Below, one piece after another: positions 38,325-48,316 of a stretch of 64,000 nt of DNA. Source of the stretch: Ignavibacteriales bacterium (GTDB lineage Bacteria > Bacteroidota > Ignavibacteria > Ignavibacteriales > DAOSCP01); the NCBI GenBank assembly GCA_035361425.1, contig DAOSCP010000001.1, forward strand, positions 275,412-339,411. Direction: 5' to 3'. The translations under genes were made by a program, and so were the position numbers. The notes under the pieces are model-generated. The model worked only from the letters and a program-made list of their open reading frames with translations, ran no database searches and was not told where the DNA came from. Within the stretch, counting starts at the first letter, position 1. Each line of letters starts with the position of its first letter.

Positions 38325-40478
38325 TTAACTCTTTTTTGTTGCTATAACAATAAGTTTATCTGATGGCAATAAATTACCTACTTCAATATCCACAACAGCA
38401 AATACCTGAGATTCTTGCACCAACCCGGTCATATCAATAATTTTTGCGCCGTTAATAATAAAAATATCAGGAACAAGTGCACCTGCATCGCCAAATGTTG
38501 TTAATTGTTGAATAATATTGGAAATTTCCTGTTTTATAGTTTGCACATTTGTTTCCTTTACAATAGCATCGTTAAGCTGAAGTTTTATAGTTCCTTCGTT
38601 ATCAATAACTCTAACTGGATTTTTTTCTGTTTTAATCATACCCAAAAGGTATTTTTTAACATCGTGACAACTAAATACATTAATAAAATCATTTTTAGCA
38701 ACCAAATGAATAAAATTTTTATCTTTTTTAAATGATAAAGCTACAATACTCAGAAGCTCATCAGAAGTTAAATCCATAATTCTTAAATCTTTTGTTCTTA
38801 GTTCGCTATTTCCCATTGCGGTAGCGATAACTTTTTTATTTTTAGAATCTATCTCAATTTGCACTTCAACAGTTTCTGGAACAGCGCCCATTTTAATTAC
38901 GGAGTTACAGATTCCTGTCGTAATGCAATTAAATCGGCCTCGGTTGGATTGATAATATTTTTTTCAACGCTATCGCGTATCATTCCCAGAGCTGCACCAA
39001 TAGCAGAAATCACTTCACAATTCTGAGCTATTTCGTGTGGTATATTCATATGTTCAGACGCAAATGGCACAACAGCTGAAGCACCTCCACCGCCACCTAT
39101 AAATTTAATTAAACTCTTATCCAATTTATATTCTTTAATAAGTTGATGTATTACCGGCTCAACTTTGCCTGCTGTAATTTTACCAATAGTTTTTGCGATA
39201 TGTTCAGCCGTTGTATTCCATTTTTTTGCATTTGTTATCAAACAGCTTTTAATAGCATTAATATTACCAGCTCCGTGCCCAACTTCTTTAACTTTATTTA
39301 AATAATATGCCGCTGCCGTAGGAGTTATCGTATATTTTTTTCTTTTCCTTTGACATTTATAGCTAAATAATCTTTAGGATCTGATTTTGTTGGTTGAATA
39401 GCTTCAAGTTCGATATCCGTAAAATTATCAAAATCTGCAAAAGATGTATAACTTAAATTAGCAATATGAGCACTTCTTGGCCCTACATCTATTATTTTAT
39501 TGCCGCTAAATCGTGGCACAGAACCGCCACCAATTCCGATTGTTCGGACATCAAGAGTTCTTACATATAAACGATTGCCGCCAATTTGTGCAGATTTAAC
39601 CTGTGGTTTTCCATTCTTGATAACAGTTATATCTGTTGATGTACCACCGACCTCAAGGAAAATACCATCTGTGATTTTAGCATACATTAACGCAGCAGCA
39701 ACACCGGCAGCAGGACCAGAAAGCATTGTTAAAATTGGTCTTTTTCTCATTTCATCAATATTCATAATACCGCCATCGGATCTCATTACCATTAAAGGAG
39801 CATTAATATTAGTTTCTCTGATTGCTTTTTCTGTCATATTAGCAGTTTCAAGCATTTTTGGCATCATAGATGCATTAATTATTGCCGTTCTTGTTCTTAC
39901 CCTTAAACCATACAATTTAGAAATAGATGAAGCAGATGTAGCAAGCAACCCTTTCTTTTGAGCTATATCCACAATTATTAATTCATTAGCAGGATTTTCA
40001 ACTCCAAACGCTTCAGTTGCGACAATAACTTCGGCGCCCTCTTCAACTAATTCATCAATTAATTTGTTGATAATATCATCATTTAATTCGTTTGAAGTAT
40101 CAAAAAATCTGTATCTTATAGGTAAAAATTTTTGTGGCGCAAGCTCAATATTATTTAAATTCGTCTCTTTTTTAATTCTGAATTTTTCGATACCTTTTCC
40201 TAACCCAATTACTCCAACCGTTGCAACATCTCCTTCTAACAAAGAGTTTGTCGCTTGCGTTGTAGAGTGGGCAATCAAAATAATTTCATCTTTGTTAATT
40301 TTGTAATCTTCTAATAATTTGAAAAGGGAATCAACAACCCCTTTTGCTACACCTTCTTTTGCTGTGTGTGTGGAGGTACACAGGCTTTACCAACAATTGA
40401 ATAATCTTTAATATCAATTGCAACTGCGTGTGTGAAGGTCCCCCCGACATCAATTCCAATTTTGATTTTTTTCCCCAT
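38325..40478 (-). pseudogene. Hydantoinase/oxoprolinase-family (ASKHA fold) gene split by three frameshifts
   Basis: Four collinear pieces occupy three frames. They are [24 protein letters not shown]... (from 40478), ...[12 protein letters not shown]...[15 protein letters not shown]...GPAAGV...EVGGTSTD... (to 39325), [17 protein letters not shown]...FIGGGGGASAVVP... (to 38897), and VIKMGAVPETVEV... (to 38325). The frame changes are at a (TG)5 repeat (40363-40372), a T7 run (39335-39341) and near 38892-38900. Confidence 0.75.
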
Positions 40479-40682
40479 ATTATGTATCACAAATATTTTT
40501 TGTTTTACAAAATACTAAAAATATTTTTTATTTTTTCTAAATTTTGAAAATTTAATAAAAATTTAATTTTTAATTCCTTTACAATTAAAAAGTTATAAAA
40601 TTAATTTGTCTTTCAGATAATATTATCTTATTTTTGTATATTAGATAATTTTATCTTATTTTAACTATTAAGGAGTTTTTAT

Positions 40683-42261: not shown

Positions 42262-43257
42262 TTACAAATTATTTGAATTTTGCAAATCATCAAACAAACT
42301 ATTACCTATTTCTGGTTCCTTTAAATTATCAAAATCAAAACCATTTTTTCTATAAAATTTTGAATTTTGAAAAGCTTCTTCTGGATTTTTATTTGCATAA
42401 CAATAAATGCATCCATGTGGGCAACTATTAAAATATCCAATATCTTTTGCATCATAACACAAACACCCCTCACGAGTTGGTTTTTTATCATAACACAAAA
42501 AATCATCTTTTACTATATATTTTATTAAATTAAGATCAATGCAGCTGGTAGATTTTATATCAATTTTATCGGTCAGTGTCGGTTCTGTGCATATTTCTAA
42601 AGTTAGATTGAATTCATCAGCTATTTTCTTTAATTTTTTTAATATTGAAATTTGCTTTTCAATCGATGGTTCATAAAACTGTATTTGTTTCTCTCTATAA
42701 GCTTGATAAAAATTCTGTTTTGTTTTTTCGTAAAAATCGACAAAACTTGTAATACATTTATTAACCATTGGAGATAAAATTTTTGCAAGTTCATAAAATT
42801 TATCATAGATATACAACTCAGTTGTTATTGATGAAAGAATAATTGGATCAAATCTCCATTGCACATAATGCTTACCATATCTTTTTGCAAGATACTCGAC
42901 AGTCTTAATAACAAAATCTAATTTTGGATTTCTGATTTCTAATTCTTTTGGTTGCCCATTGATTGTAATATGCATATAATGAGCTTTATTGTAATTATCA
43001 TCGATATAATTTAAATATTTCAATAGAGGATAAGGATTTCTTGTCCAGAAAACAAAAGCAGTAACAGCCTCTGGTCTCAGATTTGTATAAATAGGCTTTT
43101 TAGAAAACGGATTAGGATAGTAAACATATCCAACTTTAAGTCTATTGTAAAACCAATCAGCATAGTAAGCTGGGATATCAGTTCTTCTACTAACACTTAT
43201 AATTTTTTTCATAGTATTTTTTAATTTTTCTTTGAAATATATTGAAATTCTATACAA
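42262..43257 (-). CDS. DUF1848-family protein (Cys-cluster, possible Fe-S)
   Basis: It has SVSRRTDIPAYYADWFYNRL near the N-terminus and a C-terminal CPHGCIYCYAN. The likely true start is the Met at 43212 (MKKIISVS...). Confidence 0.6.
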   Translation of the reverse strand: MYRISIYFKEKLKNTMKKIISVSRRTDIPAYYADWFYNRLKVGYVYYPNPFSKKPIYTNLRPEAVTAFVFWTRNPYPLLKYLNYIDDNYNKAHYMHITINGQPKELEIRNPKLDFVIKTVEYLAKRYGKHYVQWRFDPIILSSITTELYIYDKFYELAKILSPMVNKCITSFVDFYEKTKQNFYQAYREKQIQFYEPSIEKQISILKKLKKIADEFNLTLEICTEPTLTDKIDIKSTSCIDLNLIKYIVKDDFLCYDKKPTREGCLCYDAKDIGYFNSCPHGCIYCYANKNPEEAFQNSKFYRKNGFDFDNLKEPEIGNSLFDDLQNSNNL

Positions 43258-43422
43258 CTCTACAACATTTTTTATATAACATTATTCATATGTTAAAATT
43301 ATTTGTAATATTTTTTCAATAATTAAAAACTTAATTTAAAAATATTATTTTTATTTATTAATTTCAAGTTTAATTTTAATTTATCTAACAATAAAATAAT
43401 CAAATTAAATTATGAGGAAATA

Positions 43423-43579
43423 ATGCCTGCAACAACTAAAAAAGACTAAAAAAGTATGTCAAAGATGTAAAAAAGAAAAACTTCTTTCAGAATTTTACCA
43501 TAATACAACCAAATCAGATAAACATAATGGCATCTGTAAACAATGCCAGGACGATGTAAAAAAAGTAATAGATAAGTAA
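43423..43579 (+). pseudogene. Small zinc-ribbon ORF (CxxC...CxxC) with a start and body in different frames
   Basis: GAGGAAATA-ATG at 43423 gives MPATTKKD then TAA. The +1 frame from about 43424 gives ...KKTKKVCQRCKKEKLLSEFYHNTTKSDKHNGICKQCQDDVKKVIDK with a stop at 43577-43579. That frame has no ATG, GTG or TTG start. Confidence 0.45.
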
Positions 43580-43602
43580 AAATCATATCCTATAAGTGTA
43601 TT

Positions 43603-43659
43603 AGAAGTTTAAATTTCATTGGCAACTAAATTATCCCACCTTTGAATATTTAAACTTCT
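43603..43659. repeat. Perfect 12-bp inverted repeat with a 33-nt spacer
   Basis: The arms are AGAAGTTTAAAT (43603-43614) and ATTTAAACTTCT (43648-43659). No U-run follows on either strand. Confidence 0.7.
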
Positions 43660-43738
43660 CACTAAAAAAAATTTATATAAGTATCAATAGATGATACCGT
43701 TAAACCTTTAAATTTGTATAAAAAAAATTATTTAGCTT

Positions 43739-44050
43739 ATGAAAAAGAATTTATTAAAAAATTTAAGAAATGGAATTATTTTTGTAGGAAACAGCATTAA
43801 TTTAATAGAAGAAAGTAACTTTCAGGTTCCATAAAAAATTATTCTATTTCATGGACTTGATGTTGTTGAAACTGATAATTATTTTCTTCAATACAATAAT
43901 GAAAATAGAGATTTAAATGGAAAAGAAATAACTATTTCCAATGATGAATCTATAAAAATAAAAAGGAAAACTAATAAAAGTTGATGAAAAAACTGTTGAA
44001 GAAAATAGGCTGGAAACAAATTCATACTATATTACTATCGATAGAAACAT
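43739..44050 (+). pseudogene. ORF remnants upstream of, and in frame with, the Hsp70-like gene
   Basis: The ATG at 43739 gives MKKNLLKNLRNGIIFVGNSINLIEESNFQVP, then TAA at 43832-43834, then KIILFHGLDVVETDNYFLQYNNENRDLNGKEITISNDESIKIK. From 43962 to 44069 a different frame is open (KGKLIKVDEKTVEENRLETNSYYITIDRNI). This is either a separate small gene or a decayed N-terminal extension. Confidence 0.35.
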
Positions 44051-45969
44051 ATGCCATCTCAAAATAAATTAGATCACAATTTCAATTTTAAATTATACAT
44101 TGATGATGAATTTAAATATATAAACTTAAAAATAGAAAAAGCTGAAGAAACAGAATCTGTATTATGTATAGATTTTGGTACAAGTAATACAACTACCGGC
44201 ACTCAATTCGCTGGAACTAAAAATAAAAAATTAAAGAAACTTTGTAAAGGTGAGTTTAATTATGTTAGATTTAAAAATAATACCAATGAAACTGAAGTAT
44301 TTATTCCAACAATTATGTTAACATATGATTTTAATGATACAGATAAAAAATTCATTATAGGCTATGAAGCACAAAAGATGATTGAAGAAGCAGATTTCAT
44401 TCCTAAAGGAACAATTATAACCAACTTAAAAAAGCTATTAAATAAAATTGATGATACACAAACCCTTTACGACCAAAATAGAACTCGCGAGAAAGTTAAG
44501 AATTCAGAACTTGTTAAATACTTTATTGATTATATAATTAAATAGGTTTATTTTTAAATTCTGACAGAATTTACACAAAATATTACTTTACATTTCCTGT
44601 AAAATTTCCAGAAGATGTAAGAAATAAGATAAAAATATCTTTCAAAAGAGGATTATTAAGAAGTATTCCATATAGTATTATTGATGAAAACTTTATAGAA
44701 AACTTTATAGTTGCATATCAAGGAACAGAACTAATAGCATATTTTATTAAAGCATTAAGAGTTTATAACTTAACGGATGATGAATTTAATTTTGCTATCT
44801 TCGATTTTGGTGGTAGTACATCCGATTTTGCTTTTGGAAAATATAGACCTTCTAACGAAAAAGAAGAAGAAAATAATATTTATTATGTTATAAGTATATC
44901 TGATATGGGAGGAGACTAATATTTAGGGGGCAAAAATATATTAAATAACTTAGCCTATCTTACTTTTAAGGAAAATATATCCTTATGTAGAGAATTAGAT
45001 ATCCCATTTGTATGACCGGACAATGTTTCTGAAGACGTGGCAAAATTTTTCTTAGATGAATCAACCGCTGCTTATGCTAATATGTCAATTATGCGAAATG
45101 TATTGAGGGAATTCTGGATAAATTTAGGAAAAGCTTCCGATTTTTACATCCCTCCAATACCAGTACAAAATTTTCTAAATAAAAAAGGTGAAAATATAAC
45201 CGATACAGAAAATAACACTATTTCTATACCTGTTGACATATTAAAAGAATGGACTTATAATAGAATATTAGATGGAATTAAAGAATTTCTTGGTGGATTT
45301 AAGCAAGCATTTAAGAATATAAAAAAAGATGAACCAGTGCATGTGTTTTTATCAGGCAATGCAAGTAAATCATTAGTTCTTCAGGCAATTATGGATGCTT
45401 TATTTAATGATGGTAATAATCTTGATAGCAGTAAATATTCAGATGACCTAATTGATTTTGCAACAAATTCAGCCAAAATTGAAAACTTCAATTACAAAAT
45501 TGAATATCACCTACCTTTAATTAATGAAGATAACGATTACAATAAACCAAATTGTAAAACTGCTACTGCTTTAGGTCTTTTAGAACTTTGTACATACGAG
45601 GAAAATTATAAAATTGACGATAAAACGCAAAACAAGAAATACTTCATATTGGGAACACGTATAAGAGATAATTTTAAAATTATAATTAAAGATGCAAAAT
45701 CTGAGTGGTATGATTTTGGTAAAGTAAGTAATACAACTAAGTGTATTAACATATTTTATACTAATAAAGATAGTATTCTTCTTGAGGATAATATAAGCTA
45801 TGACGATAATAGATTATCTAGAACAGAATTAAATTATGAAGATAAAAGAAAAGATTTAAGATGTTTTATCAAACCTATAGATAACAGTAAAATTCAATAT
45901 ACTTTTGCTTTAACTGAAGAAGATATTAATGAAAAAAACATAAAAAAATTAGAATTAAAATTTAATTAA
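44051..45969 (+). pseudogene. Hsp70/actin-fold (ASKHA) ATPase-like protein, about 640 codons, disrupted
   Basis: The phosphate-1 motif is VLCIDFGTSNTTTG, the phosphate-2 motif is FAIFDFGGSTSDFAFG, and the third motif is VHVFLSGNASKSLVLQAI. The reading needs a -1 correction at 44540-44542. It contains an in-frame TAA (44917-44919, MGGD*YLGG) and an in-frame TGA (45013-45015, IPFV*PDN). Track ORFs 44051..44545 and 45037..45969 are its two ends. Confidence 0.7.
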
Positions 45970-45979
45970 GGTGTAAATT

Positions 45980-46915
45980 ATGTTATTAGTAGATTTATTA
46001 AAATTTCTCATACCAACAGACTTATTCCAGGTATTTTTTCTTTCTTATTTTACTTGGTTTAGGTCTGTGGAATTATTTATCAATTAAAAAGCAAGCTATT
46101 CCAGAAAATTGGGAATATAATTGAGCTAGCGGCACTAAAAATAATGATAATGATTTAGATTCTGAACATGGCTCACTTATTGAATTAAGCCCAGCTATCG
46201 CAACTAAAGCAGAAAAATGGGCTGATATGATACCCGGTATTATGTTGATAACTGGCTTATTTAGAACTTTTATTGGATTAGGTATAGCTTTGAATAAAGT
46301 TTTTTAATTCTTACCAATGCTCAAAGCGGTGATTTTAATACTTTGATGAATAATCTTATGCAAATGATGGAAGGATTGGGCACAAAGTTTAAAACTTCAA
46401 CCTGGGGTATAATAGGCTTTTTAGTATATAAAACTATTATCTATCTCAACGGTTTTGAAGAAAGAAGATTGCGATGGGTTATTATCAAAATGAAAAAGGA
46501 ATTCGACTCAGTTAATTATAAAAAAACCTTTAAAAATCTGATTTTTGAAAAAAGTAGTGCTAAAATTAGTCCCAAAGTAAAAGAAATATTCATACAAACA
46601 CAACCGCGTAAAAAAGAGTTTTTACAAAAAGTTCCTATTGGTAAAATTTATATTGATGGTCACACAGATAATGAACCAGTACCATATCCAATAACAGATT
46701 TTCAAAGATACGGTGCTGTTTATGATGATAATTATACTCTTTCTCCAGCACAAGCAAGAGAAGCAAGAAACATTTTAGTAGGTAACCTGGACGAAGAGCT
46801 ATCAAGGTATATTATTGTAGCAGGCTATTACTCTTCGATTCCTTTAGATCCTAAAAATCCTGCTGCTGATATAAATAGACGAGTAGAAATAAGGTTTGTA
46901 GTTGAATATAATTGA
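45980..46915 (+). pseudogene. MotA/ExbB/TolQ-like channel fused to an OmpA/MotB-like peptidoglycan-binding domain, disrupted
   Basis: AAGGTG precedes the ATG at 45980. The reconstructed protein is MLLVDLLKFLIPTDLFQVFFFLILLGLGLWNYL...WADMIPGIMLITGLFRTFIGLGIALNKVFLILTNAQSGDFNTLMNNLMQMMEGLGTKFKTSTWGIIGFLVYKTIIYL. It then continues in the same uninterrupted ORF (46343..46915) with KIYIDGHTDNEP...YTLSPAQAREARNIL...NRRVEIRF. The lesions are T6 runs at 46034-46039 and 46300-46305 (frame changes) and a TGA at 46122-46124. Confidence 0.6.
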
Positions 46916-46927
46916 GGGTAAAATAGT

Positions 46928-47215
46928 ATGAACAAGTTTCTCAAAATAATTTTTCTTTTTTCTGCGGCTATGTTATTTTTAGGTATATTTAATCAGCCAA
47001 CTGTTTTTTATAAATACTTGAGATTTATAATAACAGTTGGAGCTTTAGTTGGAATTTATAATGAATTTGATAAAAATTCTTATTTCTGGATAATTTCCTT
47101 TTTGATAATTGCAGTTTTATTTAACCCAATTTTTCCTGTTTACTTATAAAAAAAAATTTATTGGATATTTATCGATTTAATTTCCGGAATTTTATTTGCT
47201 GTTAAAGCATTTTAG
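46928..47215 (+). pseudogene. DUF6804-like small membrane protein with an in-frame TAA
   Basis: It reads MNKFLKIIFLFSAAMLFLGIFNQPTVFYKYLRFIITVGALVGIYNEF...AVLFNPIFPVYL, then TAA at 47147-47149, then KKIYWIFIDLISGILFAVKAF and TAG. The post-stop segment continues the family pattern (NP..P..L....W..ID) as I remember it. Confidence 0.5.
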
Positions 47216-47243
47216 GTAAAATAATCTTTATTGAAAAATATAT

Positions 47244-47603
47244 TTAATCTAATGGATAAACTTCATAAACCCACATTATATCATCAAAATCAACATATAG
47301 GTGGAGCTTATCATTTTGAGAATATAATCTTACACATCTAACATCACATATTAGCCCATCTTCATTTACATATTTCCATTTAATAATAAGATCTCCATCC
47401 TCGTCATATTTTTCTGAAAATTTTGTAACTATGTCATAAACTTGTTGCTTAGCACTAAATATTTTTATTCTTTCTTTATCTGTATTTACAATAATAAGAA
47501 CATTTTTAGGCTCCCAACTACTCCAATCAGACCACTTTTTAGTACTTTCATTTCTTACTCTTATTGATAAAGCACTAGATTTTAATTTAAATACTTCTGC
47601 CAT
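47244..47603 (-). CDS. Hypothetical small protein (119 aa), intact
   Basis: An ORF with no recognisable motifs. It is convergent with the island operon. Confidence 0.5.
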   Translation of the reverse strand: MAEVFKLKSSALSIRVRNESTKKWSDWSSWEPKNVLIIVNTDKERIKIFSAKQQVYDIVTKFSEKYDEDGDLIIKWKYVNEDGLICDVRCVRLYSQNDKLHLYVDFDDIMWVYEVYPLD

Positions 47604-47722
47604 ACATGTATTAAAAGTTAAAAAGAAAGTTATAAAAATCGAAAATAAAATTTTGATTTTTGCATACTTCCCCCTTTTATCCTAATTTGATTAGTGTGTA
47701 TAAAATTGAATTTTTCCATAAA

Positions 47723-47760
47723 AAATCTAACAAAGTATTAAATTTTACTTTGTTAGATTT
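47723..47760 (-). terminator. Intrinsic terminator downstream of bcp
   Basis: A 15-bp perfect inverted repeat, AAATCTAACAAAGTA...TACTTTGTTAGATTT, is followed on the minus strand by TTTTT. Confidence 0.75.
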
Positions 47761-47800
47761 TATATAAATTGAAACTAAAAAATAGATATTTCATTATTTT

Positions 47801-48316
47801 TTACTTACTATTTTTCACTGCAGCAAGAATATCATTGACATGATTTTCTATATCAACATTTCTTATAATTTTGATAATTTTCATATCTGGAGAAATGATA
47901 AATGTAACTCGGCTGGAAAATCCCAGTGCATTTAATACACCGTAATTTTTAGAAACCTCTTTTGATTCATCGGATAAAAGAGTATAATTCAAATTATATT
48001 TTTTTGCAAATTCCTGTAAAGCATCTTTACTATCAACACTTACACCAAAAACTTGAATATTATTATCTTTTAGCGTTTGTATATTATCACGAATTCCGCA
48101 GGCTTGTTTTGTACATCCTGGAGTAGAAGCTTTGGGGTAAAAATAAATAACAACAAAATTTTTACTTTTATAATCGTAAAGAGTATAATTTTTTCCATCT
48201 TTATCTGGAAGAGTGAAATTTATTGCATCCTGCCCTTCTTGAATGGATTGAGCATTTCCCCCACAAGAAGTTAATATTAAGGATGATATCAAACTAAAAA
48301 ATTTCAAAAATTTCAT
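47801..48316 (-). CDS. bcp: Thiol peroxidase / peroxiredoxin Bcp type, lipoprotein signal
   Basis: It has the PKASTPGCTKQAC peroxidatic Cys motif and the N-terminal lipobox LILTSCG. Confidence 0.85.
   Translation of the reverse strand: MKFLKFFSLISSLILTSCGGNAQSIQEGQDAINFTLPDKDGKNYTLYDYKSKNFVVIYFYPKASTPGCTKQACGIRDNIQTLKDNNIQVFGVSVDSKDALQEFAKKYNLNYTLLSDESKEVSKNYGVLNALGFSSRVTFIISPDMKIIKIIRNVDIENHVNDILAAVKNSK

Follow-up and report, generated by a model that had tools for sequence, protein, structure and literature searches.

A probable remnant of a conflict island in an Ignavibacteriales genome and intact relatives combining ZorAB-like, Hsp70-like and spike-like genes

A run of short, broken open reading frames (ORFs) occupies the plus strand at 43.4–46.9 kb of a 64,000-nucleotide stretch of an Ignavibacteriales metagenome-assembled genome (MAG); the whole of this stretch is referred to below as the window. 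The array, bordered by a DUF1848 gene and a bcp/AhpC-TSA gene, had been predicted to encode a module of three proteins, namely an Hsp70-like ATPase, a single chain joining a MotA/ExbB-type channel to an OmpA/MotB-type anchor, and a small DUF6804-like membrane protein. Comparison with intact relatives leaves almost no doubt that the locus is a fixed, non-functional remnant and that its two apparently new architectural features are deletion joints. Very probably it is a pseudogene remnant, without function, of a larger conflict island that was twice deleted and lost its 5′ half. Two deletions created the semblance of a three-protein module, since the native loci have separate ZorA-like and ZorB-like proteins, two Hsp70-like ATPases, a coiled-coil partner and a VgrG/PAAR/sheath-like set. 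What the window holds is a case of ordinary genome decay, of value in that it points to the intact clusters. The combination of parts in the parent (a ZorAB-type stator, two Hsp70-like ATPases, and VgrG-, PAAR- and sheath-like genes) appears to be undescribed.

Fragments and lesions of the window locus

Proteins of an intact locus, L001 (ENA ERZ27269208, k141_62681), were compared with the window by tblastn, and partial genes were recovered in the order Hsp70-like A, Hsp70-like B, ZorA-like and ZorB-like (Table 1). The Hsp70-like A fragment retains the phosphate-1 motif CIDFGTSNT, with everything 5′ of the fragment lost, and the "N-terminal ORF remnants" of the original prediction belong to this gene. 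At nucleotide 44542 the reading frame changes and the Hsp70-like B fragment begins. By hhalign profile comparison A and B are distant paralogues, joined here where their ATPase folds correspond structurally. The ATPase of about 640 codons that had been read as one gene is thus two, although its Hsp70 fold is borne out by PDB profile and Foldseek searches. Judged from the sequence, the joint implies a deletion of ~4.8 kb, which would have removed two complete genes together with the 3′ half of A on one side of them and the 5′ half of B on the other. The gene for the coiled-coil, GrpE-like partner is deleted in the window.

The second joint lies at ~46499–46501, where the N-terminal membrane part of the ZorA-like protein, its coiled-coil tail (~345 residues) deleted, runs in frame into the C-terminal, OmpA-type peptidoglycan-binding part of the ZorB-like protein, giving a 190-codon ORF. 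The first 75 residues of the ZorB-like protein, with the transmembrane (TM) helix and conserved Asp, are deleted. The alignments indicate that a ~1.3-kb deletion produced this joint. PADLOC supports the channel and anchor assignments, the repaired chimera matching ZorA at 7e-8 and ZorB at 2.5e-7 (the Pfam OmpA match of the ZorB-like fragment is weak, 0.027), whereas the predicted fusion of channel and anchor in one chain does not hold. Having lost both the ZorB TM helix, with the proton-carrying Asp, and all of the ZorA tail, the window copy cannot carry out any ion-driven function. No trace of the upstream island genes (sheath-like, VgrG-like, PAAR-like and the rest) was found in the window by tblastn.

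Inactivation of the window copy, which had also been predicted, is evident from smaller lesions as well. With the zinc-ribbon gene included, the array contains at least five in-frame stops (43832, ~43959 in a shifted frame, 44917, 45013 and 46122) and at least five frameshifts (near 43440 in the zinc-ribbon gene, 43960, 44050, 46050 and 46300). The first two stops, together with the frameshifts near 43960 and 44050 (from sub-alignments), fall in the Hsp70-like A fragment; the Hsp70-like B fragment carries TAA at 44917 and TGA at 45013, and the ZorA-like fragment has TGA at 46122 and frameshifts at ~46043–46067 and ~46299–46306. Moreover, the Hsp70-like B fragment has substitutions at 5 of the 48 family-invariant residues; one of them, G512S, lies in the phosphate-2 loop, which is kept as FDFGGSTSDF. 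All three stop codons, TAA, TAG and TGA, occur in the array, and the rest of the window contains 49 long ORFs that translate normally with table 11. Together with the frameshifts, this indicates gene decay and rules out an alternative genetic code behind the stops. In the order proposed, the 5′ half would have been lost and the ~4.8-kb and ~1.3-kb deletions would have occurred, the stops and frameshifts being gathered afterwards.

It is very improbable that the fused ORFs of the window are functional neo-genes, encoding a compact Hsp70 chimera and a single-chain channel-anchor. Such genes would be consistent with the in-frame ZorA::ZorB joint, with the equivalent fold positions of the A/B joint and with the retained short gaps, both as originally predicted: one of 10 nt, with a Shine–Dalgarno-like AAGGTG, ahead of the ATG at 45980, and one of 12 nt ahead of the DUF6804 ATG at 46928. 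Set against this are the stops and frameshifts over all parts, the loss of the ZorB TM helix with its Asp and of the ZorA tail, and the five mutated invariant residues of B. Furthermore, neither fusion occurs in any intact relative, where Hsp70-like B is mostly ~830–1090 aa, ZorA-like homologues are 425–839 aa and the ZorB-like protein is a separate product of 210–218 aa in the four contexts examined. Barely credible is the suggestion that the genes are truly intact and the lesions are sequencing or assembly errors, for which the low-GC MAG source and the frequency of homopolymer errors could be cited, because an independent ENA assembly (L050) is identical over 43258–47720, a JGI contig (L051) has the same fragment ORFs and the exact DUF6804 protein occurs on 22 contigs (21 of them collapsed as having mostly the same neighbouring proteins), so that the lesions are real, and because kilobase deletions and substitution-type stops cannot be indel errors. 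The lesson of this locus is that apparent domain fusions in decaying regions need comparison with intact homologues before they are called new architectures.

Table 1. Features of the window locus, with positions in the window, and genes of the intact island in their order.
Feature	Position	Strand	Length, counterpart or remarks
DUF1848 gene	42262–43257	−	left border of the broken-ORF array
Zinc-ribbon gene	43412–43579	+	frameshift near 43440 (MPATTKKD, stop, then ...KVCQRCKKEK...CKQCQ...); Pfam zinc-ribbon matches weak
Perfect 12-bp inverted repeat, AGAAGTTTAAAT / ATTTAAACTTCT	43603–43614 / 43648–43659		arises in 15% of shuffles
Hsp70-like A fragment	43778–44542	+	residues ~235–487 of 972 aa (L001); tblastn 47% identity, E 5e-51
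Hsp70-like B fragment	44542–45969	+	residues 420–893 of 893-aa P0001; tblastn match 44542–45957, 54% identity, E 2e-152
ZorA-like (MotA/ExbB-type) fragment	45980–46501	+	residues 1–175 of 520; tblastn match in three pieces, 62%, 63% and 72% identity
ZorB-like fragment	46499–46915	+	residues 76–211 of 211; tblastn match 46499–46906, 65% identity, E 1e-60
DUF6804 membrane protein	46928–47149	+	intact, 73 aa; Pfam PF20619, 61.8 bits vs cut-off 27, E 7e-17
119-aa ORF	47244–47603	−	between DUF6804 and bcp; no Pfam or PADLOC match
Terminator-like hairpin 3′ of bcp	47718–47765	−	20-nt arms, 95% complementary (repeat search)
bcp/AhpC-TSA gene	47801–48316	−	right border of the broken-ORF array
Island gene 1			709 aa; sheath-like (tentative)
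Island gene 2			163 aa
Island gene 3			489 aa; VgrG-like
Island gene 4			406 aa
Island gene 5			238 aa
Island gene 6			117 aa; PAAR-like
Island gene 7			972 aa; Hsp70-like A
Island gene 8			246 aa
Island gene 9			459 aa; coiled-coil (GrpE-like)
Island gene 10			893 aa; Hsp70-like B
Island gene 11			520 aa; ZorA-like
Island gene 12			211 aa; ZorB-like

Composition of the intact relatives

Searches with the repaired Hsp70-like sequence of the window found 95 homologues, nearly all of 830–1090 aa, the best two being 44–45% identical. The intact loci considered here are those encoding these two proteins, L001/L002 and L003–L005 (L003 is JGI Ga0373404_0000028). In all five the genes form one tight, same-strand cluster of at least 13 genes, with order and spacing conserved (Table 1).

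Among the PADLOC families, the ZorA and ZorB models are those that the intact channel and anchor proteins fit best, in agreement with the likeness to Zorya noted in the original prediction. The ZorA-like protein of L001 matches ZorA2 (7e-13) across residues 79–479, part of the tail included, and the ZorB-like protein matches ZorB (8e-22) over its full length. The latter also has MotB-family matches in NCBIfam, and its N-terminus, WVSISDLMAGVL, bears a MotB-type Asp ("SISDLM" in L001). A PADLOC scan of 10 L001 proteins (including eight neighbours of the ZorA/ZorB-like pair) and of the window ORFs detected no ZorC, D, E, F or G, consistent with the earlier claim that the partner is not of the ZorC/D type.

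The Hsp70-like proteins lie far from the familiar families in sequence. Pfam, NCBIfam and PHROGs yielded next to nothing for these proteins and most of their neighbours: the repaired ORF of the window has no Pfam match, no HSP70 (PF00012) match was obtained for the window chimera, P0001 or protein A, and in NCBIfam, where the cut-offs exceed 600 bits, the HscA and DnaK matches reach ~12–15. When 24 homologues were combined in a profile, it matched the nucleotide-binding domains of DnaK and mortalin in a PDB profile search, and the motifs invariant in these homologues are phosphate-1 DFGTS, catalytic EP.A and phosphate-2 FDFGGGT.DF. Furthermore, the AlphaFold2 model of the best homologue (Hsp70-like B; pLDDT 76) gave Foldseek E-values down to 3e-19 (DnaK) over ~650 columns. 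The top 50 matches listed are all Hsp70-family chaperones or models or complexes containing them, among them DnaK, mortalin, BiP, Hsc70, Ssb and Ssz1. The MotA/ExbB, OmpA and Hsp70 assignments thus all survive profile and structure tests.

Directly upstream of Hsp70-like B, in 14 of 40 loci and across phyla, lies a gene for a coiled-coil protein with a GrpE-like C-terminal motif, GD.FD...H...G.I...L.G....G...KKSLV. Searches of the PDB with profiles from the ZorA-like, sheath-like and full coiled-coil alignments came back empty or were swamped by coiled-coil noise.

With respect to the spike genes, the VgrG-like protein of the intact relatives has the Phage_base_V OB domain (3.5e-7 and 1.6e-11), the GPD and DUF2345 matches being weak. 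The 709/724-aa protein is tentatively regarded as sheath-like from its predicted model (pLDDT 78), whose top nine Foldseek matches are all contractile phage tails. A protein search with the alignment of the 709-aa protein returned the Selenomonadaceae branch alone, and a metagenome scan with its C-terminus, seeking sequence upstream of L001 and L003, found nothing. A SrfB match in Pfam was weak (0.048).

The Hsp70-like B family is rare, a search of 1.84 billion proteins giving 725 representatives at E ≤ 1e-30, and its hosts include Proteobacteria, Firmicutes, Campylobacterota (with Helicobacter pylori), Bacteroidales and others. A phage origin of the family was considered and is ruled out by its near absence from 2.9 million viral contigs, which yielded just two weak, short matches. 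In Proteobacteria, Hsp70-like B is the last gene of an operon that starts with a ~1000-aa HerA/FtsK-like ATPase and comprises some five to seven genes; beside this operon lie HEPN and WYL genes and restriction-modification systems of type I or type III. L003 adjoins a DISARM DrmD gene (SNF2 protein, PADLOC 1e-203), so the defence-island setting expected by the original prediction is found among the related loci. In Selenomonadaceae, Hsp70-like B stands beside homologues of the sheath-like, 163-aa, VgrG-like and 238-aa proteins and there is no ZorAB.

Some individual members of the family are of interest in their own right. The Hsp70-like B proteins of Acinetobacter radioresistens (L043:10001-12976) and other Proteobacteria have an N-terminal Lcl_C/DUF1566 domain; this domain is lectin-like, usually extracellular or associated with phage tail fibres, and unexpected in front of a cytoplasmic-type ATPase. 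Helicobacter pylori carries members of the family (L028:774-2975, L032:4746-7165), of which the copy in strain PZ5056 is split into two ORFs and may be another decayed copy. In Moritella (L044:1647-3868), the HerA-like/Hsp70-like B operon is directly preceded by two genes, one for a divergent FtsZ/tubulin and one encoding an FtsK-gamma domain, next to a type I restriction-modification system. The Selenomonadaceae loci (L052:1-22175, L053:1-22268) contain, in order, sigma-70, DUF6734, coiled-coil and Hsp70-like B genes, an AHH nuclease and Imm11, the sheath-like, 163-aa homologue and VgrG-like genes, and at least three more Hsp70 genes (Pfam HSP70 matches), one of them fused to VWA domains.

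Possible functions of the intact clusters

We tentatively propose, as a reading that is possible and short of probable, that the intact parent followed a Zorya-like logic, in which ZorAB would signal via the tail to Hsp70-like ATPases controlling a spike module. A proton-driven unit of the ZorA5:ZorB2 type, anchored in the peptidoglycan, would report envelope damage through the long cytoplasmic ZorA tail, as in Zorya. The tail would engage the Hsp70-like ATPases, cycled by the GrpE-like exchange factor, in place of ZorC and ZorD, and the ATPases might then act on the tail-like spike and sheath module, or on its cargo, by loading, firing or recycling it. Clusters of the L001–L005 type could accordingly represent, though we put this forward with some doubt, an undescribed class of envelope-anchored conflict machine, in which a minimal phage-tail-like module of spike and sheath would be coupled to an ion-driven stator of the ZorAB type and be run by dedicated Hsp70-like ATPases with a GrpE-like factor of their own, in place of the nucleases and helicases of Zorya or the AAA+ unfoldases of type VI secretion systems (T6SS). 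The Hsp70-like B and GrpE-like pair would then be the conserved core of a rare defence-island family that plugs into a HerA/FtsK-like ATPase, into spike and toxin/immunity genes, or into ZorAB.

The soluble partners that define the Zorya types are ZorC with ZorD, ZorE, or ZorF with ZorG. Zorya and the intact relatives have in common a MotA/ExbB-type protein with a long, in the relatives putative, helical tail, encoded beside a small MotB-type protein (a TM helix with Asp and an OmpA-like domain), and the defence-island setting. They differ in that the intact relatives are without ZorC–G and have a short ZorA-like protein (520 aa), the partners being Hsp70-like ATPases and tail-like proteins; what is left in the window is just the membrane domain of ZorA and the peptidoglycan-binding domain of ZorB. 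ZorAB is the core of Zorya types I–III, for which cryo-EM structures are available (PMC11946911, PMC11890865).

Hsp70-like B resembles DnaK in its actin-fold nucleotide-binding domain, where the phosphate-1 and phosphate-2 motifs are found, and in its C-terminal domain, which is beta-rich and can be aligned with the DnaK substrate-binding domain; the upstream coiled-coil gene of the 14 loci recalls the DnaK/GrpE partnership. In contrast to DnaK, to which it is 12–16% identical, it has an extra N-terminal domain of ~260 aa (the Lcl_C/DUF1566 domain in some proteobacterial members), and no J-domain partner was seen with it. A precedent for divergent Hsp70-like units in prokaryotic defence operons is offered by the type III McrBC-related CoCoNuT systems, which have the Hsp70-like CnuD/CnuCD with degenerate CnuD motifs (PMC11090510). 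By their description these are set apart from the present family, the partners being the McrB GTPase and McrC and the motifs degenerate, whereas those of Hsp70-like B are invariant.

The intact relatives resemble T6SS and other contractile injection systems in their VgrG/gp5-type spike, their PAAR-like protein and their membrane anchor, which binds peptidoglycan, and tentatively in a sheath-like fold, but they have no recognisable TssB/C, Hcp, baseplate-wedge or ClpV proteins, and in the window the spike set is wholly gone. Relatives of the ZorA/ZorB pair occur in IetA-like four-gene clusters (Caballeronia, Geopseudomonas and most of 80 metagenome loci), which have the same subfamily, with 40–50% identity in the membrane domain, and likewise lie in defence-type contexts; their partners are an AAA+ ATPase and a ~420-aa protein, however, in place of Hsp70-like or spike genes. 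No description of a ZorAB–Hsp70 system, or of a spike or contractile-injection system with Hsp70, was found in PADLOC, Pfam, NCBIfam or the searchable literature.

Several observations weigh against the Zorya-like reading. The family assignments on which it draws are in part weak: the ZorA-like protein scores 31.6 bits against a cut-off of 190 for NCBIfam antiphage_ZorA_1; the PAAR-like protein reaches E 0.016 at best; and the sheath-like model has a best Foldseek E of 4.5e-4, with no Pfam or PHROG match for the 709/724-, 163-, 406- and 238-aa proteins and no baseplate-wedge or tube family detected by sequence in the intact relatives. For the coiled-coil protein, 2 of 12 members matched Pfam GrpE (best E 0.015), and hhalign against residues 148–193 of E. 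coli GrpE, the GrpE sequence being entered by hand, gave a weak E of 0.003. The Selenomonadaceae version, with an AHH nuclease toxin and Imm11 and without ZorAB, points to toxin delivery over phage defence. Finally, the same gene order recurs in L001–L005, as a check for co-occurrence had sought, but the link is narrow. Hsp70 and ZorAB are paired solely in the clade that comprises L001, L003 and the window, the link being seen in about three related lineages plus the window. Of 40 Hsp70-like B loci that were scored, the 35 that fall outside the L001–L005 clade all lack ZorAB, and neither Hsp70-like nor spike genes accompany the ZorA subfamily at any of 80 other metagenome loci. There its usual partners are ZorB (70), the 420-aa protein (62) and the IetA-like AAA+ ATPase (53). 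Because the link is narrow and the subfamily usually has other partners, the ZorAB and Hsp70 modules could be independent neighbours.

A first alternative, about as likely as the Zorya-like reading, is that the intact parent was a membrane-anchored contractile or spike machine delivering toxins against competitors, with the ZorAB-like pair as a TssL/TagL-like anchor and the Hsp70-like proteins replacing ClpV or assembly chaperones. This is consistent with the VgrG-like and PAAR-like genes and sheath-like fold of the intact relatives, with the match of the ZorB-like protein to the OmpA domain of long-form TssL (1.5e-14), and with the position of the Selenomonadaceae nuclease and Imm11 genes between Hsp70-like B and the sheath-like gene; a toxin/immunity pair among spike genes suggests effector delivery. 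On the other hand, no TssB/C, Hcp, TssE/F/G/K or TssM family was found by Pfam or PHROGs, the proteobacterial relatives of Hsp70-like B occur without spike genes and with a HerA/FtsK-like ATPase beside restriction-modification systems, and L003 adjoins DISARM.

Rather unlikely, in our judgement, is that the Hsp70/spike cluster and the ZorAB-like unit, an orphan of two genes, are independent systems that lie side by side through defence-island packing only. The narrow distribution and the habitual IetA-like and 420-aa partners described above would fit such an arrangement, and defence islands routinely place unrelated systems together. It is opposed by the conservation of the order B–ZorA–ZorB on one strand with gaps of 10–53 nt in the window, L001 and L003, despite protein identities of 44–69%. 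Moreover, there is no plus-strand terminator-like site between B and ZorA in L001 (promoter and terminator scans of this locus gave counts equal to shuffles), and ZorAB has no other candidate partner in these loci.

If the parts do work together, motors of the ZorAB type would serve generally as sensors or anchors in the envelope, open to wiring with very different cytoplasmic machinery. The clusters would then offer a first example of a conflict apparatus in prokaryotes with an Hsp70-type chaperone cycle of its own, and stator-based defence would be linked with phage-tail-derived weapons.

The IetA-like clusters form a recurrent arrangement of their own, composed of an IetA-like AAA+ ATPase (PADLOC IetA 6e-29), the ~420-aa protein, a ZorA-like and a ZorB-like gene (L048:7754-12333, L049:8019-12573 and most of L056–L135). 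The cluster lies beside PDC-M27 in Caballeronia and beside WYL and type I restriction-modification genes in Geopseudomonas, and looks like an unrecognised Zorya-like type.

Flanking genes and repeats of the window locus

The plus-strand array lies between the DUF1848 and bcp genes as originally described, but it is not "extremely AT-rich", its GC content of 25.6% against 28.5% for the whole window making it only slightly richer in AT than its surroundings.

An intact 47-aa homologue of the zinc-ribbon gene lies directly 3′ of the ZorB-like gene in L003, L004 and L005, with 85% amino-acid identity over 27 residues and 79% nucleotide identity over 129 nt to the window copy, and the gene therefore appears to travel with the island type. 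Its nucleotide identity to the L003 copy (L003:15013-15156) stands beside protein identities of just 44–65% for its neighbours, and it is found at opposite ends of the array, upstream of the remnant in the window and downstream of ZorB in L003. The inverted repeat between the zinc-ribbon gene and the Hsp70-like A fragment is present where it had been predicted, though without statistical weight, and was dropped as a meaningful site since a chance repeat of this kind arises so readily in shuffles.

The family assignment of the DUF6804 protein is confirmed by Pfam; its membership in the module is not, as neither it nor the minus-strand 119-aa ORF has a counterpart in L001–L005, and it is an unrelated neighbour outside the system. 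The 119-aa ORF is exactly conserved in 21 contigs of the same organism. The terminator-like hairpin of bcp was found as predicted (Table 1).

On the other side of the DUF1848 gene, a hydantoinase-family gene (39325–40490, minus strand) appears to be split. A 47-aa ORF at 40347–40490 with the typical N-terminal motif is out of frame with a 317-aa ORF (39325–40278) bearing the remainder, which suggests a second pseudogene near the island.

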